Below, in pieces: positions 33,001 to 61,600 of a stretch of 64,000 bases of DNA. How positions within the stretch are numbered: position 1 is the first letter of the stretch; each line of letters opens with the position of its first letter. Source of the DNA: Eledone cirrhosa (taxonomy: Eukaryota). A program made the translations under genes and the position numbers. The notes beneath the pieces were generated by a model that was given only the letters and a program-made list of their open reading frames with translations, made no database searches and was not told where the DNA came from. The stretch is from contig OZ024740.1 in assembly GCA_964016885.1 (NCBI GenBank), positions 34,596,001-34,660,000 on the forward strand, read 5' to 3'.

Positions 33001-36000
33001 ACAAACTGTCAAAACTAATATATCTATATTGTACACTTTATCAGATATATACACTTCACAACACTGTCACAACTAATATATCTGTATTGTACACTTTACC
33101 TGTTATATACACCTCACAACACTGTCACAACTAATATATCGATACTCTATACATTATCAGTTATCGACACCTCACAAAAATGTCACACCTAATATATTTA
33201 TATTGTACACTCTAATTGTTATATACACTTCACAACATTTTCATAACTAATATATCTATATTGAACATTTTATTTGTTATACACAACTCACAGCATTGTC
33301 AAAACTAATATGTCTATATTGTACACATTATCTGTTATATACCCTTCACAACACTGTCACAAATAATATATCTATATTGTACAATTCATCTGTTATACAC
33401 GCCTCTCATCACTGTCAAAACTAATATATCTATATTGTACACTTTATCTGGTATATACCCTTCACAACACTGTCACAACTAATATATCAATATTGAACAC
33501 TTTATCTGTTATATACACCTCACAACACTGTCAAAACTAATATATTTTTTATTGTACACTTTACCTGTTATATACACTTATCAACACTGTCACAACTAAT
33601 ATATCTGTATTGTAAAATTTATCTGTTATATACACCTGACAACACTGTCACGACTAATATACTTATATTGTACACTTTATCTGTTATATACACTTCACAA
33701 CATTGTCACAACTAATATATCTATACTGTATACATTACCTCTTATATACACCTCACAACTAATTTATCTATATTGTACACTCTATCTGTTATATACACTT
33801 CACAACAGTATCACAACTAATATATCTATATTGTACACTTTACCTGTTATATATACCTCACAACACTGTCACAAATAATATATCTATAATGTAAACTTTG
33901 CCTGTTATATACCCTTCACAACACTGTTACAACTAATATATCTGTATTGTACACTTTACCTGTAATATACACTTCACAACACTGTCACAACTAATATATC
34001 TGTATTGTACACTTTATCTGTTATATACACCTCACAGCACCGTCACAACTAACACATCTCTACTGTACACTTTATCTGTTATATACACTTCACAACACTG
34101 TCACAACTAATATCTGTTATATACACATCACAACACTGTCACAACTAATGTAGCTGTATTGTACATTTCATCTGTTATATACACCTCACAGCACTGTCAC
34201 AACTAATATATCTGTATTGTAGGCTTTATCTTTTATATACACTTCACAACAGTGTCACAAGTAATATATGTATATAGTAAACTTTACCTGTTATATACAC
34301 TGCACAACACTGTCACAACTAATATATCTGTATTGTACACTTTATCTATTATATACACTTCACAACACTGTCACAACTAATATATCTGATATGTACAATT
34401 TATCTGTTATATACACTTCACAACACTGTCACCACTAATATATCTGTAATTTTCACTGTATCTGTTATATACACCTCACATCCCTGCAACAAGTAAAATA
34501 TCTATACTGTACATTTTATCTGTTATATACACCTCACAATACTGTCACAACTAATATATCTGTATTGTACACTTTATCTGCTATATACACCTCACAACTA
34601 ATATATATATATTGTACACTTTATTTGTTATATACACTTCATACCACTGTCACAACTAATACATCTCTACTGTAAACATTATCTGTTATATACACTTCCC
34701 AACACTGTCACAACTAATATATTTGTACTGTATCCATTATCTGTTATATACACTTAACAACACTGTCACAACTAATATATCTGTACTGTACCATTTATCT
34801 GCTATATACACCTCACAACTAATATATCTATATTGTACACTTTATCAGTTATATACACTTCACAACACTGTCACAACTAATATATCTGTATTGTACACTT
34901 TATCTGTTATATTCACCTCACAGCACCGTCACAACTAATACATCTCTACTGTACACTTTATCTGTTATATACACTTCACAACACTGTCACCACTAATATA
35001 TCTGTACTGTACACTTTACCTGTTATATACACCTCACAACACTGTCACAACTAATATATCTATATTGTACACTTTATCTGTTATATACACCTCACAACAC
35101 TGTCAAAACTAATATATCTATATTGTACACCTTTTCTGTTATATACACTTCACAACAGTCACAACTAATATATCTGTACTGTACACTTTATCTGCTATAT
35201 ACCCCTCACAACTAATATATCTATATTGTACACTCTATCAGTTATATACACTTCACAACACTGTCACAACTAATATATCGTTATCGTACACTTCCTCCGT
35301 TATATACATCTCACAGCCCTCTCACAACGAATAAATCTCTACTGTACACTTTATCTGTTATATACACTTCCCAACAATGTCACAACTAATAAATATATCT
35401 GTACTGTACACTTTATCTGTTATATACACTTCACAACATTGTCATGACTAATATATCTATATTGTACACATTATTTGTTATATACAACTCACAACACTGT
35501 CACAACTAATATATCCGTATTGTACACTTAATCTGTTATACAAACCTTACAACATTGTCACAACTAATATATCTGTATTGTACACTTTGCCTGTTATATA
35601 CACTTCACATCATTGTCACAACTAATATATCTATACTGTACATTTTATCTGTTATATACACCTCACAACACTGTCACAACTAATATATCCGTATTGTACA
35701 CTTTATCCGCTATATACACTTCACAACACTGTCACTACTAATATATCTGTATTGTACACTTTATCTGTTATATACACATCACAGAACTGTCACAACTAAT
35801 ACATCTCATTTGTACACTTTATCTGTTATATACACTTCACAACACTGTCACAACTAATATATATGTACTGTACACTTTATCTGTTATATACACTACACAA
35901 CACTGTCACAACTAATATACCTGTATTGTATCCATTATCTGTTATATACACTTAACAACACTGTCACAACTAATATATCCGTATTGTACACTTTATCCGT

Positions 36001-38680
36001 TATATACACTTCACAACACTGTAACAACATATATATTCGCATTGTACAATTTATCTGTTATATACAACTCACAACACTGTCACAACTAATATATTTATAT
36101 TGTACACTTTAACTGTTATATACACGTCACAACACTGTCACAGCTAATATAAGTATATCGTACATGTTACTTGTTATATACACATCACTGTAAGAACTAA
36201 TATATCTCTACTGTACACATTATCGGTTTTATATACCTCACAACTAATATATGTGTATTGTAAACTTTATATGTTATATACACTTCACAAAACTGTTACA
36301 ACTAATATATCTGTATTGTACACATTACCTGTTATATACACCTTACAACACTGTCACAACTAATATATCTGTATTGTACACTTTATCTGTTATATACACA
36401 TGAGAACACTGTCTCAACTAATATATCTATATTGTAACCTTTATCTGTTTTATATATCTCACAACACTGTCACAACTAATATATCTATATTGTACACTTT
36501 ATCTGTTATATACACCTCACAACACTGTCGCAACTAATATATCTGTATTGTACACGTTATCTGCTATATACACTTCACAACACTGTCACAACACATATAT
36601 TCGTATTGTACATATTATCTGTTATATACACCTCACAACACTGTCACAAGTAATATATTTATATTGTACACTTTATCTGTTATATACACGTCACAACACT
36701 GTCACAACTAATATATCTCTACTGTACACTTTATCGGTTATATACACCTCACAACTAATATATGTATATTGTAAACTTTATATGTTATATACACTTCACA
36801 ACACTGTTACAACTAATATATCTGTATTGTACACTTTACCTGTTATATTCACCTCACAACACTGTCACAACTAATATATCTATATTGATCACTTTATCTG
36901 TTATATACACCTCACAGCACTTTCACAACAAATACATTTCTTCTGTACACTGTATCTGTTATTTACAATTCACACACTGTCACAACTAATATATCCGTAT
37001 TGTACACATTATCCGTTATATACACTTCACAACACTGTCACAACTAATATATCTATATCGTACACTTTACCTGTTATATACACCTCACAACACTGTCACA
37101 ACTAATATATCTCTCTTGTACACGTTATCTGTTATATACACATCACAACACTGTCACAACATATATATTCGCATTGTACACTTTATCTGTTATATACACC
37201 TCACAACACTGTTACAACTAATATATTTATGTTGTATATTTTACCTGTTCTATACACATCACAACACTGTCATAACTAATATATCTCTACTTTACACTTT
37301 ATCGGTTATATACACCTCACAACTAATATATGTACATTGTAAATTTATGTTATATACACCTCACAACTCTATCACAACTAATATATCTATACTGTACACA
37401 TTATCTGTTATATACACTTCACAACACTGTCACAACTAATATATCTGTATTGTACACTTAATCTGTTATATAAACTTTACAACACTGTCACAACTAATAT
37501 ATCTGTATTGTAAACTTTACCTATTATATACACTTTACAACATTGTCACAACTAATATATCTATACTGTACGATTTACCTGTATATACACCTCACAACAC
37601 TGTCACAATTAATATATCTATATTGTATATTTTATCTGTTACATATTTTCAGAACACTGTCACAACAAATATATATATTGTACAATTTATCTGTTATATA
37701 CACCTCACAGCACTATCACAACTAATACATCACTTCTGTACATTTCATCTGTTTTATACACTTCATAACACTGTCACAACTAATATATCTGTACTGTACA
37801 CTTTATCTGTTATTTACCCTTCAGAACACTGTTACAACTAATATATCTCTACTGTACACCTTATCTGTTATATACACCTCACAACACTGTCGCAACTAAT
37901 ATACCTATATTGTACACTTTATCTGTTATATATACCTCACAACACTGTCTCAACTAATATATCTATATTGTACACTTTACCTGTTATATACACCTCACAG
38001 CACCGCCACAACTAATACATCTCGACGGTACACTTTATCTGTTATATACGCTTCCCAACACTGTCACAACTAATATATCTATATTGCACACTTTATCTGT
38101 TATATACACTTCCCAAAACTGTCACAACTAATATATTTCAACTGTACCCTTTATCTGTTATATACACTTCACAACATTGTCATAAGTAATATATCTGTAT
38201 TGTACACTTTACCTGTTATATACACTTCACAACACTGTCACAACTAATATATCTATATTGTACAAACGTCCTGTTATATACACATCACAACACTGTCACA
38301 ACTAATATATCTATATTGTACACTTTATCTGTTATATACACTTCACAACACTGTTACAAATAATATATCTGTATTTTACACTTAATCTGTTATATAAACC
38401 TTACAACACTGTCACAACTAATATATCTGTATTGTACACTTTATCTGTTATATACACCTCACAACACTGTCACTATTAATATATCTATATTGTACACTTT
38501 ATCTGTTATATACACCTCACAGCACTTTCACAACAAATACATTTCTTCTGTACACTTTTTCTGTTATTTACACTTCACACACTGTCACAACTAATATATC
38601 CGTATTGTACACATTATCCTTTATATACACTTCACAACACTGTCACAACTAATATATCTATATTGTACACTTTACCTGTT
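28380..38680. repeat. Older ~3.4-kb block duplicated at about 6.8-6.9 kb offset (28380-31900 versus 35270-38680)
   Basis: Marker offsets: 28387/35279 (6892), 29652/36548 (6896), 30278/37116 and 30705/37543 (6838), 31741/38521 (6780). The later offsets step by one 58-nt monomer. Confidence 0.85.
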
Positions 38681-41600
38681 ATATACACCTCACAACACTG
38701 TCACAACATATATATTCGCATTGTACACTTTATCTGTTATATACACCTCACAACCCTGTTACAACTAATATATTTATATTATAACTGTATCTGTTATATA
38801 CACGTCACAACACTGTCACAACTAATATATCTATATTGTATATTTTACCTGTTCTATAAACATTACAACACTGTCATAACTAATATATCTCTACTTTACA
38901 CTTTATCGGTTATATACACCTTACTACTAATATATGTATATTGTAAGTTTATGTTATATACACCTCACAACACTATCACAACTAATATATCTATACTGTA
39001 CACATTATCTGTTATATACACTTCACAACACTGTCACAACTAATATATCTGTATTGTACACTTAATCTGTTATATAAACCTTACAACACTGTCACAACTA
39101 ATATATCTGTTTTGTACACTTTACCTGTTATATACACTTTACAACATTGTCACAACTAATATATTTATACTGTACGATTTACCTGTATATACACCTCACA
39201 ACACTGTCACAATTAATATATCTATATTGTACATATTATCTGTTATATACTCTTCAGAACACTGTCACAACTAATATCTATATTGTACATTTTATCTGTT
39301 ATATACACCTCACAGCACTGTCACAACTAATACATCTCTTCTGTACATTTCATCTGTTTTATACACTTCATAACACTGTCAAAACTAATATATCTGTACT
39401 GTACACTTTATCTGTTATTTACCCTTCACAACACTGTCACAACTAATATATCTGTATTGTACACTTTATCTGTTATATACACTTCACAACACTGTTACAA
39501 CTAATATATCTGTGTTGTACACTTTACCTGTTATATACACTTCACAACACTGTCACAACTAATATATCTATATTGTACACTCTATCTGTTATATACACTT
39601 CACAGCACTGTCACAACTAATACATCTCTTCTGTACATTTCATCTGTTTTATACACTTCATAACACTGTCACAACTAATATATCTGTACTGTACACTTTA
39701 TCTGTTATTTACCATTCACAACACTGTCACAACTAATATATCTCTACTGTACACTTTATCTGTTATTTTCCCTTCACAACTCTGTCACAATTAATATATC
39801 TGTATTGTATCTGTTATATACACCTCACAGCACTGTCACAACTAATACATCTCTTCTGTACATTTCATCTGTTTTATACACTTCACAACACTGTTACAAC
39901 TAATATATCTGTGTTGTACACTTTACCTGTTATATACACTTCACAACACTGTTACAACTAATATATCTGTGTTGTACATTTTACCTGTTATATACACTTC
40001 ACAACACTGTCACAACTAATATATCTATATCGTACACTTTATCAGTTATATATATCTCACAACACTGTCACAACTAATATATCTATATTGTAACCTTTAC
40101 CAGTTATATACTGTTCACCACACTGTCACAACTAATATATCTGTATTGTACACACTATCTCTTATATACACTTCACAACACTGTCACAACTAATATATCC
40201 ATATTGTATACTTTATCTGTTATATATATCTCACAACACTGTCACGACTAATATATCTATATTGTAACCTTTACCAGTTATATACTGTTCACCACACGGT
40301 CACAACTAATATATCTGTATTGTACACACTATCTCTTATATACACTTCACAACACTATCACAACTAATATATCTATATTGTATAATTTACCTGTTATATA
40401 CAAATCACCACACTGTCACAACTAATATATCTATATTGTACAATTTATCTGTTATATACACTTCACAACACTGTCACAACTAATATATCTGTATTGTACG
40501 CTTTATCTGTTATATACACCTTACAACAATGTCACAACTAATATATCTCTACTGTACACCTTATCTGTTATATACACCTCATAACACTGTCACAGCTAAT
40601 ATATCTATATTGTACACTCTATCTGTTATATATATCTCACAACACTGTCACAACTAATATATCTATATTGTAACCTTTACCAGTTATGTACTGTTCACCA
40701 CACTGTCACAACTAATATACCTATATTGAACACTTTATCTGTTATATACACCTCACAACACTGTCTCAAATAATATATCTATATTGTACACTCTATCTGT
40801 TATATATATCTCACAACACTGTCACAACTAATGTATCTATATTGTAAACTTTACCTGTTATATAAACTTCACCACACTGTCACAACTAATATTTCTGTAT
40901 TGTACACTTTATCTGTTATATACACCTCACAACACTGTCACTATTAATATATCTATATTGTACACTTTATCTGTTATATACACCTCAAAGCACCGCCACA
41001 ACTAATATATCTGTATTGTACACTTTATCTGTTATATACACCTCACAAAACTGTCACTATTAATATATCTATATTGTACACTTTATCTGTTATATAAACC
41101 TTACAACACTATCACAACTAATATATCTGTATTGTACACTCTATCTGTTATATACACCTCACAACACTGTCACTATTAATATATCTATATTGTACACGTC
41201 ATCTGTTATATACACCGCACAGCACTTTCACAACAAATACATCTCTTCTGTACACTTTATCTCTTATTTACACTTCACACACTGTCACAACTAATATATC
41301 CGTATTGTACACTTTATCCCTTATATACACTTCACAACACTGTCACAACTAATATAACTATATTGAACACTTTACCTGTTATATACACATCACATCACTG
41401 TCATAACTAATATATCTCTACTTTACACTTTATCGGTTATATACACCTCACAACTAAGATATGTATATTGTAAACTTTATATGTTATATACACCTCACAA
41501 CACTATCACAACTAATATATCTATACTGTACACATTATCTGTTATATACACTTCACAACACCGCCACAACTAATATATTTGTATTGTACACTTAATCTGT

Positions 41601-44600
41601 TATATAAACCTTACAACACTGTAACAACTAATATATCTGTATTGTAAACTTTACCTTTTATATACACTTCACAACCTTGTCACAACTAATATATCTATAC
41701 TGTACGATTTACTTGTTATATTCACCTCACAACACTGTCACAATTAATATCTATATAGTACACTTTATCTGTTATATAGACCTCACAGCACTGTCACAAC
41801 TAATACATCTCTTGTGTACACTTCATCTATTTTATAGACTTCATAACACTGTCACACCTAATATATCTGTACTGTACACTTTATCTGTTATTTACCCTTC
41901 ACAACACTGTCACAACTAATATATCTGTATTGTAAATTTTATCTGTTATATACACTTCACAACACTGTTACAACTAATATATCTGTGTTGTACACTTTAC
42001 CTGTTATATACACTTCACAACACTGTCACAACTAATATTTCTGTATTGTACACTTTATCTGTTATATACACCTTACAACAATGTCACAACTAATATATCT
42101 CTACTGTACACTTTATCTGTTATATAAACCTCACAACACTGTCACAACTAATATTCCTATATTATATACGTTATCTGTTATATACACTTCACAACACTGT
42201 TACAACTAATATATCTGTGTTGTACACTTTACCTGTTATATACACTTCACAACACTGTCACAACTAATATTTCTGTATTGTACGCTTTATCTGTTATATA
42301 CACTTCCCAACACTGTCACAACTAATATATTTGAATTGTTTCCCTTTATCTGTTATATACAGTTCACAACACTGTCACAACTAATATATCTGTATTGTAC
42401 ACACCCTCACTTATATACACTTCACAACACTATCACAACTATTATATCTATATTGTACAATTTACCTGTTATATACACATCACGTCACTGTCACAACTAA
42501 TATATATCTACTGTACACTTTATCTGTTATATACACCTCACAACACTGTCACAACTAATATACCTATATTGTACACGTTATCTGTTATATACACCTCACA
42601 ACACTGTCTCAACTAATATATCTATAGTGTAAACTTTACCTGTTATATAAACTTCACCACACTGTCACAACTAATATTTCTGTAATGTACACTTTATCTG
42701 TTATATACACCTCACAACACTGTCACTATTAATATATCTATATTGTACACTTTATCTGTTATATACACCTCAAAGCACCGCCAGAACTAATACATCTCTA
42801 CGGTACACTTTATCTGTTATATACACTTCCCAACACTGTTACAACTAATATATCTGTATTTTACACTTAATCTGTTATATAAACCTTACAACACTGTCAC
42901 AACTAATATATCTGTATTGTACACTTTATCTGTTATATACACCTCACAAAACTGTCACTATTAATATATCTATATTGTACACTTTATCTGTTATACACAC
43001 CTCACAGCACTTTCACAACAAATACATCTCTTCTGTACACTTTATCTCTTATTTACACTTCACACACTGTCACAACTAATATATCCGTATTGTACACTTT
43101 ACCTGTTATATACACATCACATCACTGTCATAACTAATATATCTCTACTTTACACTTTATCGGTTATATACACCTCACAACTAAGATATGTATATTGTAA
43201 ACTTTATATGTTATATACACCTCACAACACTATCACAACTAATATATCTATACTGTACATATTATCTGTTATATACACTTCACAACACCGTCACAACTAA
43301 TATATCTGTATTGTACACTTAATCTGTTATATAAACCTTACAACACTGTCACAACTAATATATCTGTATTGTACACTTTACCTTTTATATACACTTCACA
43401 ACCTTGTCACAACTAATATATCTATACTGTACGATTTACTTGTTATATACACCTCACAACACTGTCACAATTAATATCTATATAGTACACTTTATCTGTT
43501 ATATAGACCTCACAGCACTGTCACAACTAATACATCTCTTCTGTACACTTCATCTATTTTATAGACTTCATGACACTGTCACAACTAATATATCTGTACT
43601 GTACACTTTATCTGTTATTTACCCTTCACAACACTGTCACAACTAATATATCTGTATTGTACACTTTATCAGTTATATACACTTCACAACACTGTTACAA
43701 CTAATATATCTGTGTTGTACACTTTACCTGTTATATACACTTCACAACACTGTTACAACTAATATTTCTGTATTGTACACTTTATCTGTTATATACACCT
43801 CACAGCACCGCCACAACTAATACATCTCTACTGTACACGTTATCTGTTATATACACTTCCCAACACTGTCACAACTAATATAATTGAACTGTACCCTTTA
43901 TCTGTTATATACACTTCACAACATTGTCATAAGTAATATATCTGTATTGTACACCGTCACTATTATACACACTTCAAAACACTGTCACAACTAATATATT
44001 TATATTGAACACTGTATCTGTTAAATATATCTCACAACACTGTCACAACTAATATATCTGTATTGTACACTTTACCTGTTATATACACCTCACAACACTG
44101 TCACAAATAATATATCTATATTGTACACTTTATCTGTTATATACACCTCACAACACTGTCACAACTAATATATCTATATTGTACACTTTATCTGTTATAT
44201 ACACCTCACAGCACTCTCACAACTAATACATCTCTACTGTACACTTTATCTGTTATATACACTTCACAACACTGTCACAACTAATACATCTGTATTGTAC
44301 ACTTTATCTGTTATATACACCTCACAACACTGTCTCAACTAATATACCTGTATTGTACACTTTATCTGTTATATACACCTCACAGCACTCTCACAACTAA
44401 TACATCTCTACTGTATACTTTATCTGTTATATACACTTCACAACACTGTCACAACTAATATATCTGTACTGTACACTTTATCTGCTATATACACCTCACA
44501 ACTAATATATCGTTATTGTACATTTCATCTGTTATATACACTTCACCACACTGTCACAACTAATACATCCCCACTGTACACTTTATCTGTTATATACACG

Positions 44601-46113
44601 TCACAACACTCTCACAACTAATATATCTATATTGTACACTTTATCTGTTATATACACCTTACAACACTGTCACAACAAATATATCTGTATTGTACACTTT
44701 ATCTGTTATATACACCTCACAGCACCGTCACAACTAATACATCTCTACTGTACACTTTATCTGTTATATACACTTCACAACACTGTCACAACTAATATTT
44801 CTGTACTGTACACTTTTTCTGTTATATACACCTCACAACTTATATATGTATATTGTACATTTCATCTGTTATATACACCTCACAGCACTGTCTCAACTAA
44901 TACATCTCTACTGTACACCTTATCTGTTATATACACTTCACAACACTGTCATAACTAATATATCTGTACTATACCCTTTATCTGTTATATACACTTCACA
45001 ACATTGTCATCATTAATATATCTATATTGTACACTTTATTTGTTATATACACCTCACAACACTGCCACAACTAATATACCTGTACTGTACACTTTACTTG
45101 TTATATACACTTCACAACACTTTCACTACGAATATATCTATACTGTACACTTTACTTGTTATATACACTTCACAACACTGTCACAACTAATATATCTATA
45201 TTGTACACTTTATCTGTTATATACACCTCACAACAATGCCACAATTAACATATCTGTATCGTACACTTTATCTGTTATATACACATCACAACACTGTCAC
45301 AACTAATATATCTATATTGTAAACTTTACCTGTTATATAGACTTCACAACACTGTCACAACTAATATATCTATATTGTACACTTTATCTGTTATATACAC
45401 TTCACAACACTGTCACAACTAATATATCTATATTGTAAACTTTACCTGTTATATAGACTTCACAACACTGTCACAACTAATATATTTATATTGAACACTT
45501 TATCTGTTATATACACTTCACAACACTGTCACAACTAATATATTTATATTGAACACTTTATCTGTTATATAGACTTCACAACACTGTCATAACTAATATA
45601 TCTATATTGTACAATTTATCTGTTATATACACTTCACAACACTGTCACAACTAATATATCTATATGGTACACTTTATCTGTTATATATATCTCACAACAC
45701 TGTCACAACTAATATATCTGTATTGTACACTTTATCTGTTATATACACCTCACAACACTGTCATAACTAATATATCTGTATTGAACACTTTACCTGTTAT
45801 ATATATCTCACAACACTGTCACAACTAATATATCTGTATTGTACACTTTATCTGTTATATATATCTCACAACACTGTCACAACTAATATATCTATATTCT
45901 ACACTTTATCTGTTATATATATTTCACAACACTGTCACAACTAATATATCTATATTCTACACTTTACCAGTTATATACACATCACAACACTGTCACAACT
46001 AATATATCTATATTGTACACTTTATCTGTTATATACATCTCACAACACTTTCACAACTAATATATTTATATTCTACACTTTACCTGTCATATACACATCA
46101 CAACAGTCACAAC
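28387..46113. repeat. Diverged (old) domain of the 58-bp array, subfamily 'gtacac...tatacac(c/t)tc'
   Basis: Consensus shifts to tctatattgtacactttatctgttatatacacctca, with many private substitutions and 47-nt deletion monomers. The first part of this domain is also copied at 25579-27252. Confidence 0.93.
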
Positions 46114-46129
46114 CAAGAGATATGTATTG

Positions 46130-46224
46130 AATTATTAATCCAGGGGTTAATTAAATAATGTACCAGTAATACACAGGTGTAATTGCTGACCTTGTGCCAA
46201 AAGTAGAAACAATTATTAATCCAG
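46130..46224. repeat. 14-bp direct repeat aattattaatccag (46130-46143 and 46211-46224)
   Basis: Exact 14-mer seen twice, 81 bp apart, at the right edge of the 58-bp array. Confidence 0.8.
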
Positions 46225-46266
46225 TCATATTCTACAAAGCATCTTTATATCAACATTTACTTTAAA

Positions 46267-46284
46267 CACACACACATATATATA
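46267..46284. repeat. Short compound microsatellite (CA)5(TA)4
   Basis: cacacacaca tatatata read directly. Confidence 0.8.
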
Positions 46285-46286
46285 AT

Positions 46287-46309
46287 CTTACTTCAAACAA
46301 ATTCTTCAG
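46287..46309 (+). promoter_or_regulatory. 3' splice site (candidate branch point cttAc at 46290; acceptor ttcttcAG)
   Basis: CAG|G at 46307-46310 is preceded by a short pyrimidine run, and there is no other AG for about 68 nt upstream. The branch point assignment is inferred. Confidence 0.85.
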
Positions 46310-46471
46310 GTTCAGAGTGGACGCACTACAATAGTCGTTGCTCACAGATTATCAACAATTCGATCAGCAGACAAGATCTTAGCTTTTAAGAGCGGAGAAA
46401 TTGTTGAAAGAGGATCACATGATGAATTAATGAAACTAGATGGATATTATGCTTCGCTTGTTAGGGCTCAG
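46310..46471 (+). CDS. ABCB1: Internal coding exon of an ABCB-subfamily (P-glycoprotein/MDR1-like) ABC transporter; C-terminal part of a nucleotide-binding domain (H-loop), most likely NBD1
   Basis: 162 nt = 54 codons with no stops: [54 protein letters not shown]. It contains the ABCB signature [16 protein letters not shown] and G.I.E.G.H.ELM...G.Y..LV..Q. It aligns without gaps, at roughly 60% identity, to human ABCB1 ARKGRTTIVIAHRLSTVRNAD...GIYFKLVTMQ as recalled from memory. It is flanked by cag| and |gtaaga. Exact orthology (ABCB1/4/5/11-like) cannot be resolved. Confidence 0.95.
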
Positions 46472-46477
46472 GTAAGA
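46469..46477 (+). promoter_or_regulatory. 5' splice donor CAG|GTAAGA
   Basis: Near-consensus donor (MAG|GTRAGT) exactly where protein homology ends; phase 0. Confidence 0.9.
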
Positions 46478-46687
46478 TTAGAAACTATTCAATTCTTTCT
46501 CATTTAATCAATAATGTTTTTGTCTCTAGCTCTATAAAGGCTTTCAACAGAATTTTCATTGACGTTTTTCTTTCGGAAAACGGGTTTCTCATATATCAGT
46601 TTTTACGAGAAAATTGAGAATAATTCAAAAACATTACGTTGGTAAAGGCACCCATTATTATATTCAACTGTGTTTGATACCTTCGAC

Positions 46688-49600
46688 GGAAGTAAAGTCT
46701 ATTAGATGGTTTCTTGTACCAACCACTGATACAGGAACTAAAACTTTTGGATGGTATCTTGTACCAACCACTGACACAGGAAGTAAATCTTTTGGATGGT
46801 TTCTTGTACCTACCACTGTCACAGGAAGTAAATCTATTGCATGGTTATTGTACCTACCACTGATACAGGTAGTAACAAATTTGGATGGTTTCCTGTACCA
46901 ACCACTGACACAAGAAGTAAATCTATTGGATGGTTTCTTGTACCAACCACTGACACAGGAAGTAAAAACTATTGGATAGTTTCTTGTAAATATGATTGTT
47001 ACAGGAAGTAAAATCTATTGAATGGTTTCTTGTAACTTACAATGTCACTGGAAGTAAAAACTATTGAATGGTTTCTTGTAACTTGCAATGTCACTGAAAG
47101 TAAAATCTATTGGATGGTTTCTTGTAACTTGCAATGACACTGAAAGTAAAATCTATTGGATGGTTTCTTGTAACTACCACTGACACAGGAACTAAAAACA
47201 TTTGGATGGTTGCTTGTACCAACAAATGACACAGGAAGTAAATCTTTTGGATGGTTTCTTGTACCAACCACTGACACAGGGAGTACATTTTTGGATGGTT
47301 TCTTGTACCTACCACTGACGCAGGAAGTAAAAAATTATGGATGGTTGCTTGTAGCAAGCACTGACACAGGAAGTAAATCTTTTGGATGGTTAATTGTACC
47401 AACCACTGTCACAGGAAGTAAACACTTTTGGATGGTTTCTTGTACCAACCACTGACAGAGGAAGTAAATCTATTGGATGGTTTCTTGTACCTACCACTGT
47501 CACAGGAAGTAAATCTATTGGATGGTTTCTTGTACATTGCAATGACACAGGAAGTAAAACTAATGGATGGTTTCTTGTACCTACCACTGACAGAGGAAAT
47601 AAATCTATTTGATGGTTTCTTGTAACTTGCAATGACACAGGAAGTAAAACTATTGGATGGTTTCTTGTACATACCACTGACACAGGAAGTAAATCTATTG
47701 GATGATTTCTTGTACGAACCACTGTCACAGGAAGTAAACACTTTTGGATGGTTGCTTGTACCAACCACAGACACAGGAAGTAAATCTATTGGATAATTTC
47801 TTATACCTACCACTGACACAGGAAGGAAATCTATTGGATGGTTTCTTGTAACTTGCAATGACACAGGAAGTAAAACTATTGGTTGGTTTCTGTACCTACC
47901 ACTGCCGAAGGAAGTAAATCTATTGGATGGTTTCTTGTACCTACCAATGATACAGAAGGTAAATCTATTGGATGGTTTCTTGTAACTCGCAATGACACAG
48001 GAGGTAAAACTTTTGTATGGTTTCTTGTACCAATCACTGACACAGGAAGTAAAGTTATTGGATGGCTTCTTGTATCAACCACTGACACAGGAAGTAAATC
48101 TATTGGATGGTTTCTTGTACCAGCCACTGACACAGGAAATAAAAACTATTGGATGGTTTCTTGTAAATATTATTGTTACAGGAAGTAAAATCTATTGGAT
48201 GGTTTCTTGTAACTACCACTGACACAGGAAGTAAAAACTATTGGATGGTTTCTTGTAAATACCACTGACACAGGAAGTAAAAACATTTGGATGGTTTTTT
48301 TTGTATCTACCACTGACACAGGAAGTAAATCTATTGGATGGTTTCTGTACCTACCACTGACACAGGAAGTAAAACCTATTGGATGGTTTCTTGTACATAT
48401 CATTGTCACAGGAAATAAATCTCTTTGATGGTTTCTTGTACCAACCACTGACACAGAAAATAAATCTATTGAAGGTTTTTTGTAACTACCACTGACACAG
48501 GAATTTAATCTATTGGATGGTTCCTTATACGTACCACTGACACAGGAAGTAAAATCTATTGGATGGTGTCATGTACCAACCACTGACACAGGAAGTAAAA
48601 TCTATTGGATGGTTTCTTGTACGTACCACAAGCACAGGAAGTAAAATCTATTGGATGGTTTCTTGTACCTTCTAGTGTAACAGGAATTAAATCTATTGGA
48701 TGGTTTCTTGTACCTACCACTGATACAGGAACAAAGAACTATTGTATGGTTTCTTGTCACCTGCAATGTCACACGAAGTAAAAACTATTGGATGCTTTCT
48801 TGTAACCTGCAATGTCACAGGAAGTAAAAAGTATTGGATGGTTTCTTGTAACTTGCAATGACACAGGAAGTAAAAACTATTGGATGTTTTCTTGTAACCT
48901 GCAGTGTCACAGGAAGAAAAAACTATTGGATGGTTCCTTGTAACTACCACTGACACAGGAAGTAAAATCTATTGGATGGTTTCTTGTACCAACCACTGAT
49001 AAAGGAAGTAAATCTATTGGATGGTTTCTTGTACTTACCACTGACACAGGAAGTAAATCGATTGATGGTTTATTGTACCGACCACTTTCACAGGAATTAA
49101 ATCTATTGGATGGTTTCTTGTACCTACCACTGTCAGAGGAAGTAAATCTATCGGAATGTTTCTTGTATCTACCACTGTCACATGAAGTAAATCTATTGGA
49201 TGGTTTCTTGTACCTACCACTGTCACAGGAAGTAAATGTATTGGCTGGTTTCTTGTACCTTCTACTGTCACAGGAAGTAAATCTATTGGATGGTATCTGT
49301 AACTACAACTGATACAGGAAGAAATCTATTGGATGGTTTCTTGTACCAACCACTGACACAGGAAGTAAATCTATTGGATGGTTTCTTGTACCAACCACTG
49401 ACACAGGAAGTAAATCTATTGGATGGTTTCTGTACCTACCTCACCTCTGTCACAGGAAGTAAATCTATTAGATGGTTTCTTGTATCTACCATTGAGATAG
49501 GAATTAAATCTATTGGATGGTTTCTTGTAACTTGTAATGACACGGGAATTAAAATCTATTGAATGTTTTCTTGTAACTTGCAATGACACAGGAAGTAAAG

Positions 49601-52600
49601 TCTATTGGATGGTTTCTTGTACCTACCATCGACACAGGAAGTAAATCTATTGGATGTTTTATTGTACCTACCACTGATACAGGAAGTAAATCTATTGGAT
49701 GGTTTCTTGTAACTTGCAATGACTCAGGAAGTAGAAACTATTGGATGGGTTTCTTGTACCAACCACTGACACAGGAAGCAAATATATTGGATGGTTTCTT
49801 GTACCTACCACTGACACAGGAAGTAAATCTATTGGATGGTTTCTTGTACCAACCACTTACACAGGAAGTAAAAACTATTCGATGGTTTCTTGTAACTATG
49901 ATTGGTAGAGGAAGTAAAATCTATTGGATAGTTTCTTGTAACGACCACTGACACTGGTAGTAAAACTTATGGGATGGTTTCTTGTAACTTTTAATGACAC
50001 AGGAAGTAAAAGTATTGGATAGTATCTTGTAACTACCACTGACAGAGGAACTAAAAATTATTGGATTGTTTCAATAACACAGGAAGTAATTACTATTGGA
50101 TGGTTTCTTGTAACTTGCAATGACACAGGAAGTAAATACTATTAGATGGTTTCTTGTAACTACCACTGTCACAGGAATTAAAATATATTGGATGGTTTCT
50201 TGTAACTTGCAATGACACAGGAAGTAAAATCTATCGGATGGTTTCTTGTACCTACCACTGACACAGGAAGTAAATCCATTGGATGGTTACTTGTAACTAC
50301 CACTGACACTGGAAGTAAATCTATTGGATGTTTCTTGTAACTACCACTGACACTGGAAGTAAATCTATTGGATGTTTCTTGTAACTACCACTGACACTGG
50401 AAGTAAATCTATTGGATGGTTTCTTGTAACTATCACTGAAACAGGAAGTAAATCTATTGGATGGTTTTTTGTAACACCACTGACACAGGAAGTAAATCTA
50501 TTGGATGGTTTCTTGTAACTATCACTGAAACAGGAAGTAAATCTATTGGATGGTTTTTTGTAACACCACTGACACAGGAAGTAAATCTATTGGATGGTTT
50601 CTTGTAACTATCACTGAAACAGGAAGTAAATCTATTGGATGGTTTCTTGTAACTATCACTGAAACAGGAAGTAAATCTATTGGATGGTTTTTTGTAACAC
50701 CACTGTCACAGGAAGTAAAATCTATTGGATGGTTTCTTTTACCAACCACTGACACAGGAAGTAAAAACAATTGGATGGTTTCTTGTAACTACCACTGACA
50801 CAGGAAGTAAAAACTATGGGATGGTTTCTTGTGCCTTGTAATGACACAGGAAGTAAATCAATTGGATGGTTTCTTGTATCTACCACTGACACAGGTAGTA
50901 AATATATTGGATGGTTTCTTGTAACAACCACTGACACAGGAAGTAAAATATATTGGATGGTTTCTTGTAACTACCACTGACACAGGAAGTAAAAATTATT
51001 GGATTGTTTCTTGTAATCTTCAATGAAACAGGAAGTAAAAAGTATTGGATGGTTTCTTGTAACTTGCAATGACACAGGAAGTAAAAACTATTGGATGGTT
51101 CCTTTTAACTACCACTGACACAGGAAGTAAATCTATTGGATGGTTTCTTGTAACTTGCAATGACACAGGAAGTAAAAACTATTGGATGGTTTCTTGTACC
51201 TACCACTGACACAGGAAATAAATCTATTGGATGGTTTCTTGTACCTACCATAGAGGCAGGAAGTAAAATCTATTGGATGGTTTCTTGTACCTACCACTGA
51301 CACAGGAAGTAAATATATTGGATCGTTTCATGTACCAATCACTGACACAGGAAGTAAAAACTATTGGATGGTTTCTTGTAACTACCACTGACACAGGAAG
51401 TAAAAACTATTGGATGGTTTCTTGTAACTTGTAATGACACAGGAAGTAAAAGTATTGGATCGTTTCTTGTACTAACCACTGACACAGGAAGTAAAAACTA
51501 TTGGATGGTTACTTGTACCTATCACTGACACAGGAATTAAAATATATTGGATGGTTTCTTGTAACTTGCAATGACACAGGAAGTAAATCTATTGGATGTT
51601 TTCATGTACCTACCACAAACACAGGAAGTAAATCTATTGGATAGTTTCTTGTACCTACCACTGACACAGGAAGTAAATCTATTGGATGGTTTCTTGTTCC
51701 TACCACTGACACAGGAAGTAAATCTGTTGGATGGTTCCTCGTAACTTGCAATGACACAGGAAGTAAAAACTATTGGATGGTTTCTTGTACCTACCACTGA
51801 CACAGGAAATAAATCTATTGGATGGTTTCTTGTACCTACCATAGAGGCAGGAAGTAAAATCTATTTGATGGTTTCTTGTACCTACCACTGTCACAGGAAG
51901 TAAATCCATTGGATGGTTTCTTGTAACTACCACTGGCACAGGAAGTAAATCTATTGAATGGTTTCTTGTAACTACCACTGACACTGGAAGTAAATCTATT
52001 GGATGGTTTCTTGTAACTACCACTGACACTCGATGTAAATCTATTGGATGTTTTCTTGCAACTACCACTGACACAGGAAGTAAATCTATTGGATGGTTTC
52101 TTGTAGCACCATTGTCACAGGAAGTAAAATCTATTGGATCGTTTCTTTTACCAACCACTGACACAGGACGTAAAATCTATTGGATGGTTTCTTGTAACTA
52201 CCACTGACACAGGAAGTAAAAACTATTGGATGGTTTCTTGTAACTTGTAATGTCACAGGAAGTAAGAATATTGGATCTTTACTTGTACCAACCACTGACA
52301 CAGGAAGTAAAAAACTATTGGATGGTTACTTGTATCTACCACTGACACAGTAATTAAAATATATTGGATGTTTTCTTGTAACTACCACTGACACAGGAAG
52401 TAAATCTATTGGATGGTTTCTTATACCTACCACTGACACAGGAAGTAAATCTATTGGATTGTTTCTTGTACCTACCACTGACACAGGAAGTAAATATATT
52501 GGATGGTTTCTTGTACCTACCACTGACACAGGTAGTAAATATATTGGATGGTTTCTTGTACCTACCACTGACACAGGAAGTAAAATATATTGGATGGTTT

Positions 52601-55600
52601 CTTGTAACTTGCAATGACACAGGAAGTAAATACTATTAGATGGTTCCTTGTAACTACCACTGACACAGGAATTAAAATATATTGGATGGTTCCTTGTAAC
52701 TTGCAATGACACAGGAAGTAAATACTATTGGATGGTTTCTTGTAACTACCACTGAAAACAGGATGTAAAAATTATTAGATGGTTCCTTGTAACTACCACT
52801 GACACAGGAATTAAAATATATTGGATGGTTTCTTGTAACTTGCAATGACACAGGAAGTAAAAATTATTGGATTGTTTCTTGTAATTTTCAATGAAACAGG
52901 AAGTAAAAAGTATTGGATGGTTTCTTGTAACTTGCAATGACACAGGAAGTAAAAACTATTGGATGGTTCCTTCTAACTACCACTGACACAGGAAGTAAAT
53001 CTATTGGATGGTTTCTTGTAACTTGCAATGACACAGGAAGTAAAAACTATTGGATGGTTTCTTGTACCTACCACTGACACAGGAAATAAATCTATTGGAT
53101 GGTTTCATGTACCTACCATAGAGGCAGGAAGTAAAATCTATTGGATGGTTTCTTGTACCTACCACTGACACAGGAAGTAAATATATTGGATCGTTTCTTG
53201 TACCAATCACTGACACAGGAAGTAAAAACTATTGGATGGTTTCTCGTAACTACCACTGACACAGGAAGTAAAAACTATTGGATGGTTTCTTGTAACTTGT
53301 AATGACACAGGAAGTAAAAGTATTGCATCGTTTCTTGTACCGACCACTGACACAGGAAGTAAAAACTATTGGATGGTTACTTGTGCCTACCACTGACACA
53401 GGAATTAAAATATGTTGGATGGTTTCTTGTAACTTGCAATGACACAGGAAGTAAATCTATTGGATGTTTTCTTGTACCTACCACTAACACAGGAAGTAAA
53501 TCTATTGGATTGTTTCTTGTACCTACCACTGACACAGGAAGTAAATCTATTGGATGATTTCTTGTTCCTACCACTGACACAGGAAGTAAATCTATTGGAT
53601 GGTTCCTCGTAACTTGCAATGACACAGGAAGTAAAAACTATTGGATGGTTTCTTGTACCTACCACTGACACAGGAAATAAATCTATTGGATGGTTTCTTG
53701 TACCTACCATAGAGGCAGGAAGTAAAATCTATTTGATGGTTTCTTGTACCTACCACTGACACAGGAAGTAAATCCATTGGATGGTTTCTTGTAACTACCA
53801 CTGGCACAGGAAGTAAATCTATTGAATGGTTTCTTGTAACTACCACTGACACTGGAAGTAAATCTATTGGATAGTTTCTTGTAACTACCACTGAAACAGG
53901 AAGTAAATCTATTGGATGGTTTCTTGTACCACCATTGTCACAGGAAGTAAAATCTATTGGATGGTTTCTTGTACCTTCCACTGTCACAGGAAGTAAAATC
54001 TATTGGATGGTTTCTTGTACATACCACTGACACAGGAAATAAATCTATTGGATGGTTTCTTGTACCTACCATAGAGGCAGGAAGTAAAATCTATTTGATG
54101 GTTTCTTGTACCTACCACGGACACAGGAAGTAAATCCATTGGATGGTTTCTTGTAACTACCACTGGCACAGGAAGTAAATCTATTGAATGGTTTCTTGTA
54201 ACTACCACTGACACTGGAAGTAAATCTATTGGATAGTTTCTTGTAACAACCACTGACACAGGAAGTAAAAACTATTGGATGGTTTCTTGTAACTTGTAAT
54301 GACACAGGAAGGAAGAGTATTGGATCTTTACTTGTACCAACCACTGACACAGGAAGTAAATAACTTTGGATGGTTACTTGTACCTACCACTGACACAGTA
54401 ATTAAAATATATTGGATGGTTTCTTGTAACTTGCAATGACACAGGAAGTAAATCTATTGGATGGTTTCTTGTATCTACCACTGACACAGGAAGTAAATCT
54501 ATTGGATGGTTTCTTGTACCTACCACTGACACAGGAAGTAAAAACTATTGGATGGTTTCTTGTAACTACCACTGACACAGGAAGTAAAAACTATTGGATG
54601 GTTTCTTGTAACTACCACTGACACAGGAAGTAAAAACTATTGGATGGTTTCTTGTAACTTGTAATGACACAGGAAGTAAATCTATTGGATGGTTTCTTGT
54701 ACCTACCACTGACACAGGAAGTAAATCTATTGGATGGTTTCTTGTATTTACCACTGACACAGGAAGTAAATATATTGGATGGTTTCTTGTACCTACCACT
54801 GACACAGGAAGTAAAATATATTGGATGGTTTCTTGTAACTTGCAATGACACAGGAAGTAAATACTATTGGATGGTTTCTTGTAACTACCACTGACACAGG
54901 AAGTAAATCTATTGGATGGTTTCTTGTACCTACCACTGACACAGGAAGTAAATCTATTGGATGGTTTCTTGTACCTACCACTGACACAGGAAGTAAATAC
55001 TATTGGATGGTTTCTTGTAACTACCACTGACACAGGAAGTAAATCTATTGGATGGTTTCTTGTACCTACCACTGACACAGGAAGTAAATCTATTGGATGG
55101 TTTCTTGTATTTACCACTGACACAGGAAGTAAATATATTGGATGGTTTCTTGTACCTACCACTGACACAGGAAGTAAAATATATTGGATGGTTTCTTGTA
55201 ACTTGCAATGACACAGGAAGTAAAAACTATTAGATGGTTCCTTGTAACTACCACTGACAGAGGAACTAAAAATTATTGGATTGCTTCAATAACACAGGAA
55301 ATAATTATTATTGGATGGTTTCTTGTACCACCACTGTCACAGGAATTAAAATCTATTGGATCGTTTCTTGTACCAATCACTGACACAGGAAGTAAAAACT
55401 ATTGGATGGTTTCTTGTAACTTGTAATGACACAGGAAGCAAAATTATTGGATCGCTTCTTGTACCAACCACTGACACAGGAAGTAAAAACTATTGGATGG
55501 TTACTTGTACCTACCACTGACACAGGAATTAAAATATATTGGATGGTTTCTTGTAACTTGCAATGACACAGGAAGTAAATCTATTGGATGGTTACTTGTA

Positions 55601-58600
55601 CCTACCACTGACACAGGAAGTAAAAACTATTAGATGGTTCCTTGTAACTACCACTGACACAGGAAGTAAATCTGTTGGATGGTTCCTCGTAACTTGCAAT
55701 GACACAGGAAGTAAAAACTATTGGATGGTTTCTTGTACCTACCACTGACACAGGAAATAAATCTATTAGATGGTTTCTTGTACCTACCATAGAGGCAGGA
55801 AGTAAAATCTATTTGATGGTTTCTTGTACCTACCACTGTCACAGGAAGTAAATCCATTGGATGGTTTCTTGTAACTACCACTGGCACAGGAAGTAAATCT
55901 ATTGAATGGTTTCTTGTAACTACCACTGACACTGGAAGTAAATCTATTGGATGGTTTCTTGTAACTACCACTGACACTCGATGTAAATCTATTGGATGGT
56001 TTCTTGTAACTACCACTGACACAGGAAGTAAATCTATTGGATGGTTTCTTGTAGCACCATTGTCACAGGAAGTAAAATCTATTGGATCGTTTCTTTTACC
56101 AACCACTGACACAGGAAGTAAAATATATTGGATGTTTTCTTGTAACTACCACTGACACAGGAAGTAAATCTATTGGATGGTTTCTTGTAGCACCATTGTC
56201 ACAGGAAGTAAAATCTATTGGATCGTTTCTTTTACCAACCACTGACACAGGAAGTAAAATCTATTGGATGGTTTCTTGTAACTACCACTGGCACAGGAAG
56301 TAAATCTATTGAATGGTTTCTTGTAACTACCACTGACACTGGAAGTAAATCTATTGGATGGTTTCTTGTAACTACCACTGACACTCGATGTAAATCTATT
56401 GGATGGTTTCTTGTAACTACCACTGACACAGGAAGTAAATCTATTGGATGGTTTCTTGTAGCACCATTGTCACAGGAAGTAAAATCTATTGGATCGTTTC
56501 TTTTACCAACCACTGACACAGGAAGTAAAATCTATTGGATGTTTTCTTGTAACTACCACTGACACAGGAAGTAAATCTATTGGATGGTTTCTTGTAGCAC
56601 CATTGTCACAGGAAGTAAAATCTATTGGATCGTTTCTTTTACCAACCACTGACACAGGAAGTAAAATCTATTGGATGGTTTCTTGTAACTACCACTGACA
56701 CAGGAAGTAAATCTATTGGATGGTTTCTTGTAACTACCACTGACACAGGAAGTAAATCTATTGGATGGTTTCTTGTAACTACCACTGACACAGGAAGTAA
56801 ATCTATTGGATGGTTTCTTATACCTACCACTGACACAGGAAGTAAATCTATTGGATGGTTTCTTGTACCTACCACTGGCACAGGAAGTAAATATATTGGA
56901 TGGTTTCTTGTATCTACCACTTACACAGGAAGTAAATCTATTGGATGGTTTCTTGTAACTACCACTAACACAGGAAGTAAATCTATTGGATGGTTTCTTG
57001 TAACTATCACTGAAACAGGAAGTAAATCTATTGTATGGTTTCTTGTAACTACCACTGACACAGGAAGTAAAATCTATTGGATCGTTTCTTTTACCAACCA
57101 CTGACACAGGAATTAAAAACTATTGAATGGTTTCTTGTAACTACCACTGACACAGGAAGTAAAAACTATGGGATGGTTTGTTGTACCTTGTAATGACACA
57201 GGAAGTAAATCAATTGGATGGTTTCTTGTACCTACCACTGACACAAGAAGTAAATCTATTGAATGGTTTCTTGTACCTACCACTGACACAGGAAGTAAAT
57301 ATATTGGATGGTTTCTTGTACCTACCACTGACACAGGAATTAAAATATATTGGATGGTTTCTTGTAACTTGCAATGACACAGGAAGTAAATACTATTGGA
57401 TGGTTTCTTGTAACTACCATTGACACAGGAAGTAAAAACTATTAGATGGTTCCTTGTAACTACCACTGACACAGGAATTAAAATATATTGGATGGTTTCT
57501 TGTAACTTGCAATGACACAGGAAGTAAAAATTATTGGATTGTTTCTTGTAATTTTCAATGAAACAGGAAGTAAAAAGTATTGGATGGTTTCTTGTAACTT
57601 GCAATGACACAGGAAGTAAAAATTATTGGATTGTTTCTTGTAATTTTCAATGAAATAGGAAGTAAAAAGTATTGGATGGTTTCTTGTAACTTGCAATGAC
57701 ACAGGAAGTAAAAACTATTGGATGGTTCCTTCTAACTACCACTGACACAGGAAGTAAATCTATTGGATGGTTTCTTGTAACTTGCAATGACACAGGAAGT
57801 AAAAACTATTGGATGGTTTCTTGTACCTACCACTGACACAGGAAATAAATCTATTGGATGGTTTCTTGTACCTACCATAGAGGCAGGAAGTAAAATCTAT
57901 TGGATGGTTTCTTGTAACTACCACTGACACAGGATGTAAATATATTGCATCGTTTCTTGTACCAATCACTGACACAGGAAGTAAAAACTATTGGATGGTT
58001 TCTTGTAACTACCACTGACACAGGAAGTAAAAACTATTGGATGGTTTCTTGTAACTTGTAATGACACAGGAAGTAAAAGTATTGCATCGTTTCTTGTACC
58101 GACCACTGACACAGGAAGTAAAAACTATTGGATGGTTACTTGTACCTACCACTGACACAGGAATTAAAATATGTTGGATGGTTTCTTGTAACTTGCAATG
58201 ACACAGGATGTAAATCTATTGGATGTTTTCTTGTACCTACCACTAACACAGGAACTAAATCTATTGGATTGTTTCTTGTACCTACCACTGACACAGGAAG
58301 TAAATCTATTGGATGATTTCTTGTTCCTACCACTGACACAGGAAGTAAATCTATTGGATGGTTCCTCGTAACTTGCAATGACACAGGAAGTAAAAACTAT
58401 TGGATGGTTTCTTGTACCTACCACTGACAGGAAATAAATCTATTGCATGGTTTCTTGTACCTACCATAGAGGCAGGAAGTAAAATCTATTTGATGGTTTC
58501 TTGTACCTACCACTGACACAGGAAGTAAATCCATTGGATTGTTTCTTGTAACTACCACTGGCACAGGAAGTAAATCTATTGAATGGTTTCTTGTAACTAC

Positions 58601-61600
58601 CACTGACACTGGAAGTAAATCTATTGGGTGGTTTCTTGTAACTACCACTGAAACAGGAAGTAAATCTATTGGATGGTTTCTTGTACCACCATTGTCACAG
58701 GAAGTAAAATCTATTGGATCGTTTCTTTTACCAACCACTGACACAGGAAGTAAAATCTATTGGATGGTTTCTTGTAACAACCACTGACACAGGTAGTAAA
58801 AACTATTGGATGGTTTCTTGTAACTTGTAATGACACAGGAAGGAAGAGTATTGGATCTTTACTTGTACCAACCACTGACACAGGAAGTAAAAAACTATTG
58901 GATGGTTACTTGTAACTACCACTGACACAGTAATTAAAATATATTGGATGGTTGCTTGTAACTTGCAATGACACAGGAAGCAAATCTATTGGATGGTTTC
59001 TTGTACCTACCACTGACACAGGAAGTAAAAACTATTGGATGGTTTCTTGTAACTACCACTGACACAGGAAGTAAAAACTATTGGATGGTTTCTTGTAACT
59101 ACCACTGACACAGGAAGTAAAAACTATTGGATGGTTTCTTGTACCAACCACTGACACAGGAAGTAAAAACTATTGGATGGTTTCTTGTACCTACCACTGA
59201 CACAGGAAGTAAATATATTGGATGGTTTCTTGTACCTACCACTGACACAGGAAGTAAATATATTGGATGGTTTCTTGTACCTACCACTGACACAGGAAGT
59301 AAAATATATTGGATGGTTTCTTGTAACTTGCAATGACACAGGAAGTAAAAACTATTAGATGGTTCCTTGTAACTACCACTGACAGAGGAACTAAAAATTA
59401 TTGGATTGCTTCAATAACACAGGAAATAATTATTATTGGATGGTTTCTTGTACCACCACTGTCACAGGAATTAAAATCTATTGGATCGTTTCTTGTACCA
59501 ATCACTGACACAGGAGGTAAAAACTATTGGATGGTTTCTTGTAACTTGTAATGACACAGGAAGCAAAATTATTGGATCGTTTCTTGTACCAACCACTGAC
59601 ACAGGAAGTAAAAACTATTGGATGGTTTCTTGTACCTACCACTGACACAGGAATTAAAATATATTGGATGGTTTCTTGTAACTTGCAATGACACAGGAAG
59701 TAAATCTATTGGATGGTTACTTGTACCTACCACTGACACAGGAAGTAAAAACTATTAGATGGTTCCTTGTAACTACCACTGACACAGGAAGTAAATCTTT
59801 TGGATGGTTTCTTGTACCAAGCACTGATACAGGAATTAAATGTAATGGATGGTTTCTTGTACCAACCACTGACACAGGAAGTAAATCTATTGGATGGTTT
59901 CTTGTACCTTCCACTGTCACAGGAAGTAAATCTATTGGATGGTTTCTTGTAACTATCACTGAAACAGGAAGTAAATCTATTGTATGGTTTCTTGTAACTA
60001 CCACTGACACAGGAAGTAAAATCTATTGGATCGTTTCTTTTACCAACCACTGACACAGGAATTAAAAACTATTGAATGGTTTCTTGTAACTACCACTGAC
60101 ACAGGAAGTAAAAACTATGGGATGGTTTGTTGTACCTTGTAATGACACAGGAAGTAAATCAATTGGATGGTTTCTTGTACCTACCACTGACACAAGAAGT
60201 AAATCTATTGAATGGTTTCTTGTACCTACCACTGACACAGGAAGTAAATATATTGGATGGTTTCTTGTACCTACCACTGACACAGGAATTAAAATATATT
60301 GGATGGTTTCTTGTAACTTGCAATGACACAGGAAGTAAATACTATTGGATGGTTTCTTGTAACTACCATTGACACAGGAAGTAAAAACTATTAGATGGTT
60401 CCTTGTAACTACCACTGACACAGGAATTAAAATATATTGGATGGTTTCTTGTAACTTGCAATGACACAGGAAGTAAAAATTATTGGATTGTTTCTTGTAA
60501 TTTTCAATGAAACAGGAAGTAAAAAGTATTGGATGGTTTCTTGTAACTTGCAATGACACAGGAAGTAAAAATTATTGGATTGTTTCTTGTAATTTTCAAT
60601 GAAATAGGAAGTAAAAAGTATTGGATGGTTTCTTGTAACTTGCAATGACACAGGAAGTAAAAACTATTGGATGGTTCCTTCTAACTACCACTGACACAGG
60701 AAGTAAATCTATTGGATGGTTTCTTGTAACTTGCAATGACACAGGAAGTAAAAACTATTGGATGGTTTCTTGTACCTACCACTGACACAGGAAATAAATC
60801 TATTGGATGGTTTCTTGTACCTACCATAGAGGCAGGAAGTAAAATCTATTGGATGGTTTCTTGTAACTACCACTGACACAGGATGTAAATATATTGCATC
60901 GTTTCTTGTACCAATCACTGACACAGGAAGTAAAAACTATTGGATGGTTTCTTGTAACTACCACTGACACAGGAAGTAAAAACTATTGGATGGTTTCTTG
61001 TAACTTGTAATGACACAGGAAGTAAAAGTATTGCATCGTTTCTTGTACCGACCACTGACACAGGAAGTAAAAACTATTGGATGGTTACTTGTACCTACCA
61101 CTGACACAGGAATTAAAATATGTTGGATGGTTTCTTGTAACTTGCAATGACACAGGATGTAAATCTATTGGATGTTTTCTTGTACCTACCACTAACACAG
61201 GAACTAAATCTATTGGATTGTTTCTTGTACCTACCACTGACACAGGAAGTAAATCTATTGGATGGTTCCTCGTAACTTGCAATGACACAGGAAGTAAAAA
61301 CTATTGGATGGTTTCTTGTACCTACCACTGACAGGAAATAAATCTATTGCATGGTTTCTTGTACCTACCATAGAGGCAGGAAGTAAAATCTATTTGATGG
61401 TTTCTTGTACCTACCACTGACACAGGAAGTAAATCCATTGGATTGTTTCTTGTAACTACCACTGGCACAGGAAGTAAATCTATTGAATGGTTTCTTGTAA
61501 CTACCACTGACACTGGAAGTAAATCTATTGGGTGGTTTCTTGTAACTACCACTGAAACAGGAAGTAAATCTATTGGATGGTTTCTTGTACCACCATTGTC

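Follow-up and report, generated by a model that had tools for sequence, protein, structure and literature searches.

Intronic minisatellites (VNTRs) are made of units of 10-100 bp confined to one locus; they grow by unequal exchange and block duplications and have diverged edges. The introns of the Drosophila Y-loop genes kl-3 and kl-5 reach megabase size and are filled with simple satellites; these genes are Y-linked and belong to a spermatocyte programme that involves Blanks and Heph (available parts of PMC6508621 and PMC11207136). The 'mirage' minisatellites of amphioxus (Adh3, globins) are unstable in length at the exon-intron boundary, and splicing is seemingly not blocked by them (available part of PMC3087553).

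The stretch of DNA analysed here (the window, 64,000 nt without a single N) corresponds to OZ024740.1:34,596,001-34,660,000 (contig alias C1) in a host assembly of 3.0 Gb. It holds one exon of a gene, referred to as A, on an island between two long arrays; two further copies of the gene, B and C, lie on the same scaffold. The features of the window are as follows.

1..46129, plus strand: 58-bp minisatellite array in intron 12 of A; it starts 698 bp before the window and measures 46,827 bp (814.6 copies).
1..25000, plus strand: more recent sub-array carrying the unit variant TATAGAC, with block duplications of 2-6 kb (variant counts per ~4 kb; exact 300-mers).
46130..46309, plus strand: 3' end of intron 12, a repeat fragment followed by the acceptor ending in AG at 46308-46309.
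46310..46471, plus strand: exon 13 of gene A, which encodes the H-loop part of NBD1 in a full transporter of ABCB1-like type (sequence, homology).
46472..46687, plus strand: 5' end of intron 13, donor GTAAGA (A-B comparison).
46688..63241, plus strand: 45-bp minisatellite array in intron 13 of A, 16,554 bp, 365 copies.
63242..64000, plus strand: non-array remainder of intron 13; exon 14 begins 1,781 bp past the window end.
63331..63942, minus strand: truncated inverted copy of the exon 10 region (Walker A) of A itself, outside the reading frame (84% over 554 aligned bases); also in C.

As in kl-3 and kl-5, where small exons stand amid satellite-filled introns and about 99% of the locus is non-coding, gene A is almost entirely intron (360,749 of 364,439 bp). 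The locus resembles satellite-filled gigantism on a small scale, but the likeness to these genes put forward in the preliminary description breaks down on intron size, repeat type and size conservation, as far as the consulted parts of the Y-loop papers allow the comparison. Against megabase introns, those around exon 13 measure 51.6 and 19.3 kb and the largest 91.9 kb (A), 107.6 kb (B) and 302.5 kb (C). Instead of simple satellites we find arrays of 16-300 kb whose units of 24-71 bp are private to one intron. Y-loop introns keep their size while their sequence changes, whereas the paralogs here keep the unit and change size 35-fold; and no counterpart of the dedicated spermatocyte programme is known for the ABCB1-like copies. 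The amphioxus mirages, as described in the portion of that work at hand, share with our 58-bp array its position at the exon-intron boundary, since the latter begins at base +1 of intron 12 in A, B and C; however, mirages copy exon and splice site in a few units, whereas the 58-bp unit is unlike the end of exon 12 (by eye) and is present in about 820 copies. The closest match is with intronic VNTRs, whose unit size, single locus, block duplications and diverged edges are all found in the arrays of A, B and C, except that these are satellite-sized and that nearly every large intron or spacer has its own family. A literature search with few subscription papers in its scope listed no description of giant intron-private arrays in octopods and nothing on cephalopod ABCB1 genes or on conversion of P-glycoprotein NBDs.

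The exon on the island is 162 nt long (54 codons, phase 0/0), free of stops and bounded by AG at 46308-46309 and GT at 46472-46473, as had been read from the letters. Its assignment to the H-loop segment also holds: a PDB search aligned the peptide with residues ~577-633 of ABCB1/ABCB4 NBD1 (E 3e-29), and the proteins nearest to it, ABCB1-like ones from octopods, match at 83%, 81% and 78%. Both flanking arrays are present as announced; of the spacers, that on the 45-bp side is 216 bp (given as about 215), while that on the 58-bp side, given as about 200 bp, is 180 bp and so was only roughly right. Around positions 46143-46218 the left spacer carries a fragment of a very high-copy dispersed repeat, common to A, B and C, to which tens of thousands of contigs align.

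A model guided by an Octopus sinensis ABCB1-like protein (P0001, 1,262 aa) on 2.0 Mb of DNA gave gene A 27 coding exons on the plus strand over 364 kb, with 1,229 open codons and GT-AG borders at 26/26 introns; the ATG exon was searched for, and none of six weak candidates was chosen. Exon 12, ending in ...SALEK, lies 51,604 bp upstream of exon 13; on the 3' side, beyond the 19,309 bp of intron 13, come a 25-nt micro-exon 14 and then the linker, TMD2 and NBD2 exons, all on the plus strand. The collinear neighbours anticipated in the preliminary description are thus in place, with the frame open over 27 exons, and exon 13 is no orphan. Satellites do form the main bulk of both introns (91% of intron 12 and 86% of intron 13).

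The predicted product of gene A consists of two TMD-NBD halves in one frame, and its alignment with P0001 begins at residue ~26 and runs through to the end. In this alignment both NBDs retain intact Walker A, LSGGQ signature, Walker B/D-loop and H-loop motifs; this order of domains and motifs is that of ABCB1/P-glycoprotein full transporters, and gene B shares it. PDB and protein searches and trees (references P0001, P0002 from O. bimaculoides and P0004 from Argonauta) all place ABCB1/MDR proteins nearest. The island is an exon of a genuine, intact octopod ABCB1-like multidrug-pump gene. B is identical to P0001 at 955 residues and A at 714. Compared with B and P0001, the membrane domains of A and C are just 44-45% identical; in six NBD exons, by contrast, A and C match B at 94%. 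By homology A and C are putative xenobiotic pumps of ABCB1-like kind with divergent membrane domains. A search of 184 candidates for an A-type protein carrying TMD exon 20 found none at E<=1e-8; this was a weak search.

Three fragments of A's own exons sit in its introns, two of them inverted. One is the Walker A copy, whose exon fragment (~63605-63697, minus strand) was overlooked in the preliminary description; we ruled out a second, interleaved gene there, the piece being a truncated inverted copy of exon 10 without partner exons. Another inverted piece, at OZ024740.1:34695041-34695549 (minus strand), matches the exon 22 region, 40 kb away, with 97% identity across 507 bp, and the third, at OZ024740.1:34745476-34745550 (plus strand), is direct. 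It is only a guess that the inverted copies might pair with the pre-mRNA and undergo editing. On another contig (C2:221771622-221772044, minus strand) an intronless match to P0001 residues 476-616, with stops, might be a processed pseudogene derived from a different ABCB gene.

Near-identical copies of exon 13 are found at 35.058 and 35.855 Mb, so that both other genes lie within 1.3 Mb of A. Gene B is complete from ATG to stop, with 28 exons; gene C is A-like, diverging from A by 1.09% over 167 kb of collinear sequence, and its 27 exons, like those of A, contain no stop or frameshift. Exon 13 of A differs from that of C at 1 position and from that of B at 5. In B the homologous intron 12 measures 1,459 bp and holds 21.9 copies of the 58-bp unit; in C it measures 22,131 bp with 382.9 copies, and in A 51,604 bp with 814.6+6.5, the 6.5 copies lying at the donor and set apart by a LINE of ~4.2 kb. 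The size of this intron thus varies 35-fold among the copies and 2.3-fold between A and C, which are 1.1% apart. The 45-bp array of intron 13 is 16.6 kb long in A and 28.0 kb (618 copies) in C, and is lacking in B. With ~3.7 kb of coding sequence each, the three copies extend over 305-573 kb.

It is possible, though we think it less probable than a true duplication, that A and C represent the two haplotypes of a single gene placed one after the other in scaffolding, their length differences then being allelic; this would remain compatible with the explanation we prefer. Their low divergence fits such a reading, as does the fact that A ends at the gap at OZ024740.1:34,791,342 and C at that at 36,023,542, both inside the same 46-bp array, and in each of two runs from one sample a single version of exons 4-5 was retained. 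However, B, the 59-bp arrays and C run head-to-tail without a gap in the sequence read (30 kb of C's 35-bp array lie outside it), and the 59-bp array does not precede A (298/298 matches are downstream), though other sequence found before C recurs before A. Moreover, a second copy of B, inverted, exists for its last two exons only. The gap-free head-to-tail junction and the single full B thus favour, on the assembled sequence, a real duplication. Contig depth was unusable as a test of paralogs versus haplotypes, one stretch giving 25.3 in one run and 9.27 in another run of the same sample, and a probe of the duplication edge proved to be a common transposon. The scaffold gaps near the cluster are at 34.791, 36.024 and 36.128 Mb; between the last two, OZ024740.1:36023742-36128168 is the inverted piece with B's last two exons, with a near-perfect tandem repeat of 615-bp period at its edge.

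We then looked at how the arrays differ between the copies, with all array lengths taken from the assembly. For the 58-bp unit, 486/486 genome matches of a 22-base motif fall in intron 12 of A, B or C; for the 45-bp unit, 192/192 matches of a 19-base motif fall in A or C. In A six introns carry arrays of more than 1 kb, with units of 46, 35, 37, 58, 45 and 71 bp, the 35-bp one reaching 88.9 kb. Within the 58-bp array of A exact blocks recur at 2.1-6.9 kb, and in its young sub-array the exact 300-mers are offset by 2133, 2808, 4092 and 5367 nt; the TATAGAC variant is nearly absent from B and C by the same counts per ~4 kb. The 5' ~26 kb of this array have zero 60-mers in common with the array of C, and the 3' end up to 14%. 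These exact kilobase-scale blocks, the A-specific variant and the scant overlap of the interiors point to growth in place, which would fit unequal exchange or slippage, fast relative to a flank divergence of 1%.

The LINE mentioned above encodes a reverse transcriptase (PF00078) on the minus strand and cuts the 58-bp array 390 bp past the donor, in A only (~5095-9300 of the extracted sequence L012); the young sub-array begins beside it. In C, intron 9 holds a 35-bp array of ~297 kb (OZ024740.1:35470134-35767610; the 267 kb read are all array), where A has 88.9 kb; donor-like sites occur in this array at ~25 per kb, and it contains no good acceptor. Around a 125-nt exon of gene B, at OZ024740.1:34903109-35044203, lie arrays of its own with units of 28 bp (97.5 + 2.9 kb) and 24 bp (30.9 kb).

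The share of intron DNA taken up by arrays is 46% in A, 47% in B and 63% in C. In the four stretches outside genes it is 82%, 67%, 53% and 31%, and a 47-bp array of at least 72 kb and a 46-bp array of 64 kb were found there. Only 2/20 genome samples (10-kb windows at round positions on 8 contigs) fell inside long minisatellite arrays; the cluster is about fivefold richer in arrays than these samples, within and outside genes alike.

Regulated intron gigantism, in which array length sets the transcription time or level of the pump as proposed for Drosophila Y-loop genes, had been suggested for this locus, and we now regard it as improbable. Every copy spans hundreds of kilobases, B has giant arrays in other introns, so that total length is large in each copy, and delay by introns has been discussed for genes of 10-80 kb (in the part of PMC11207136 consulted). 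Yet the homologous intron varies 35-fold, and 2.3-fold between copies 1.1% apart, and intergenic arrays are as large as those within genes. With a comparable array load between genes and in introns, and 2/20 samples, a timing function is unsupported, as is the proposal that array length tunes expression. Length variation and context instead make neutrality of the arrays likely, as judged from sequence; the fivefold enrichment of the cluster, for which neutrality alone does not account, counts against this explanation.

Comparison of A with B revealed sharp steps in nucleotide identity: exons 11-13 and 25-27 match at 91-98%, the remaining 21 at 51-79%. The likeness extends into intron 12, 183 bp past exon 12 and 614 bp ahead of exon 13, and stops 68 bp after exon 13, which is likely the edge of a conversion tract; over the island 19/410 bases differ. 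In small protein trees (11 sequences, Argonauta partial) the high-identity exons of A and C cluster with B (94%), and the TMD tree groups B with Octopus and Argonauta, leaving A and C outside (82%). From these steps and trees we infer that gene conversion likely made the NBD exons and intron 12 of A and B alike. A contig from a second species has at least 13 exon base differences from A, against 5 for B, so the A-B exchange probably postdates the split from that species.

Transcript evidence comes from run X5, which, like every other run listed, is not recorded as RNA and was treated as such since its contigs are spliced and those of X1 and X3 are not. One X5 contig of 3,756 nt aligns with exactly 46308-46471; of its five differences there, four are listed, and all of these are B's; its flanks of 1,727 and 1,865 nt fit those of the B model (1,729 and 1,881 nt, 2 and 16 nt off). 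Placed by flank lengths, not exon by exon, it likely represents a near-full-length B-type transcript spliced over B's satellite introns of 107.6 and 36.4 kb. In a 302-nt contig (one contig, depth 3) A/C exons 4 and 5 are joined, a 183-nt GT..AG intron being absent, and the contig, which has the C-type base, reads on into exon 6; the joint of exons 4 and 5 was seen in X5 and was absent from X1, X3 and X4. Among the matches listed, the spliced contig on exon 13 is B-type only, and no contig or read joins A/C exons 12-13 or 13-14. The family thus has spliced contigs, B-type over exon 13 and C-type over exons 4-6.

The donor of the 51.6-kb intron 12 of A is weak (10th percentile of modelled sites) and its acceptor lies in the lower quartile of the 53 modelled sites, the matrices being rough and built from these 53 sites only. 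Sense-strand pseudo-exons exceeded 1 per kb in 0/11 intronic arrays and in 7/27 controls (p 0.07), which is not significant, as at other cut-offs (p 0.13 and 0.71), and gives at most a hint of a splice filter. With so few acceptor-donor pairs on the sense strand of each array, ordinary splicing would remove the arrays from an A transcript. Transcription through the arrays and recognition of exon 13 by exon definition, as put forward in the preliminary description, are conjectural. Recursive splicing was unsupported by the YAG|GT counts, no such site being found in the 58-bp arrays and 5 in the 45-bp array of A.

One may ask whether A and C are decaying genes whose H-loop exon is intact merely through conversion from B. 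The 24 coding differences between A and C, 20.5 of them non-synonymous, are close to neutral expectation, the A/C branch of the TMD tree is long, and in A no ATG exon was found and the introns hold exon debris. We nevertheless find this unlikely, given that the 27 exons of both genes are free of stops and frameshifts and that the differences are unevenly placed, with 22 of 1,977 nt in the TMD exons and 2 of 1,521 nt, both silent, in the NBD exons (p 0.0003). Furthermore, a C-type contig is spliced, and the second species carries A-type exons 4-5 (~87% alike) and an A-type island. The 22 membrane-domain differences, nearly all residue-changing, cluster in exons 16-17 and 22-23 (exons involved: 16, 17, 20-23). 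They may reflect diversifying selection acting on the drug pocket or a relaxation of constraint.

That the island is an orphan exon or a misassembly hardly deserves consideration, even though the region is rich in repeats and has three scaffold gaps in 1.9 Mb, as exons are collinear on both sides, the array-island-array order matches in A and C, the window is without N, and independent contigs cover 46193-46687 and extend beyond.

Altogether, we hold it probable that exon 13 belongs to an intact ABCB1-like gene of a tandem cluster, whose locus-private minisatellites grew by block duplication and are tolerated rather than functional. An old duplication would have given rise to B and to the A/C line, after which conversion would have copied exon 12, a then-short intron 12 with a 58-bp seed, and exon 13, with ~3-5% divergence since. 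Next, the 58-bp array would have reached a few hundred units in the A/C lineage, where the 45-bp array is also present. After the A/C split (1.1%), A would have gained the LINE by the donor and ~26 kb of the new unit variant, and the 35-bp and 45-bp arrays of C would have become the longer ones. A bolder picture, which we consider a long shot, would have conversion keep the ATPase of octopod P-glycoproteins in step while membrane domains diversify; conversion would also spread seeds, of which the splice-inert ones grow, and arrays of 1.5-300 kb might act as a heritable, fast-mutating dose dial.

The case remains a striking instance of ordinary minisatellite growth, likely neutral and regional. 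One intron with 22, 383 and ~820 copies of one unit provides a dated series, on an autosome-sized scaffold and in a gene without a germ-line link; with three such copies, the cost or effect of satellite-filled introns becomes measurable between near-identical genes. One octopus annotation limited RNA alignment to introns of 20 kb (PMC9795677, as far as consulted), and octopod gene models are liable to break at satellite-filled introns. As for the family itself, a divergent A/C pump with NBD exons common to B may broaden the substrate range.
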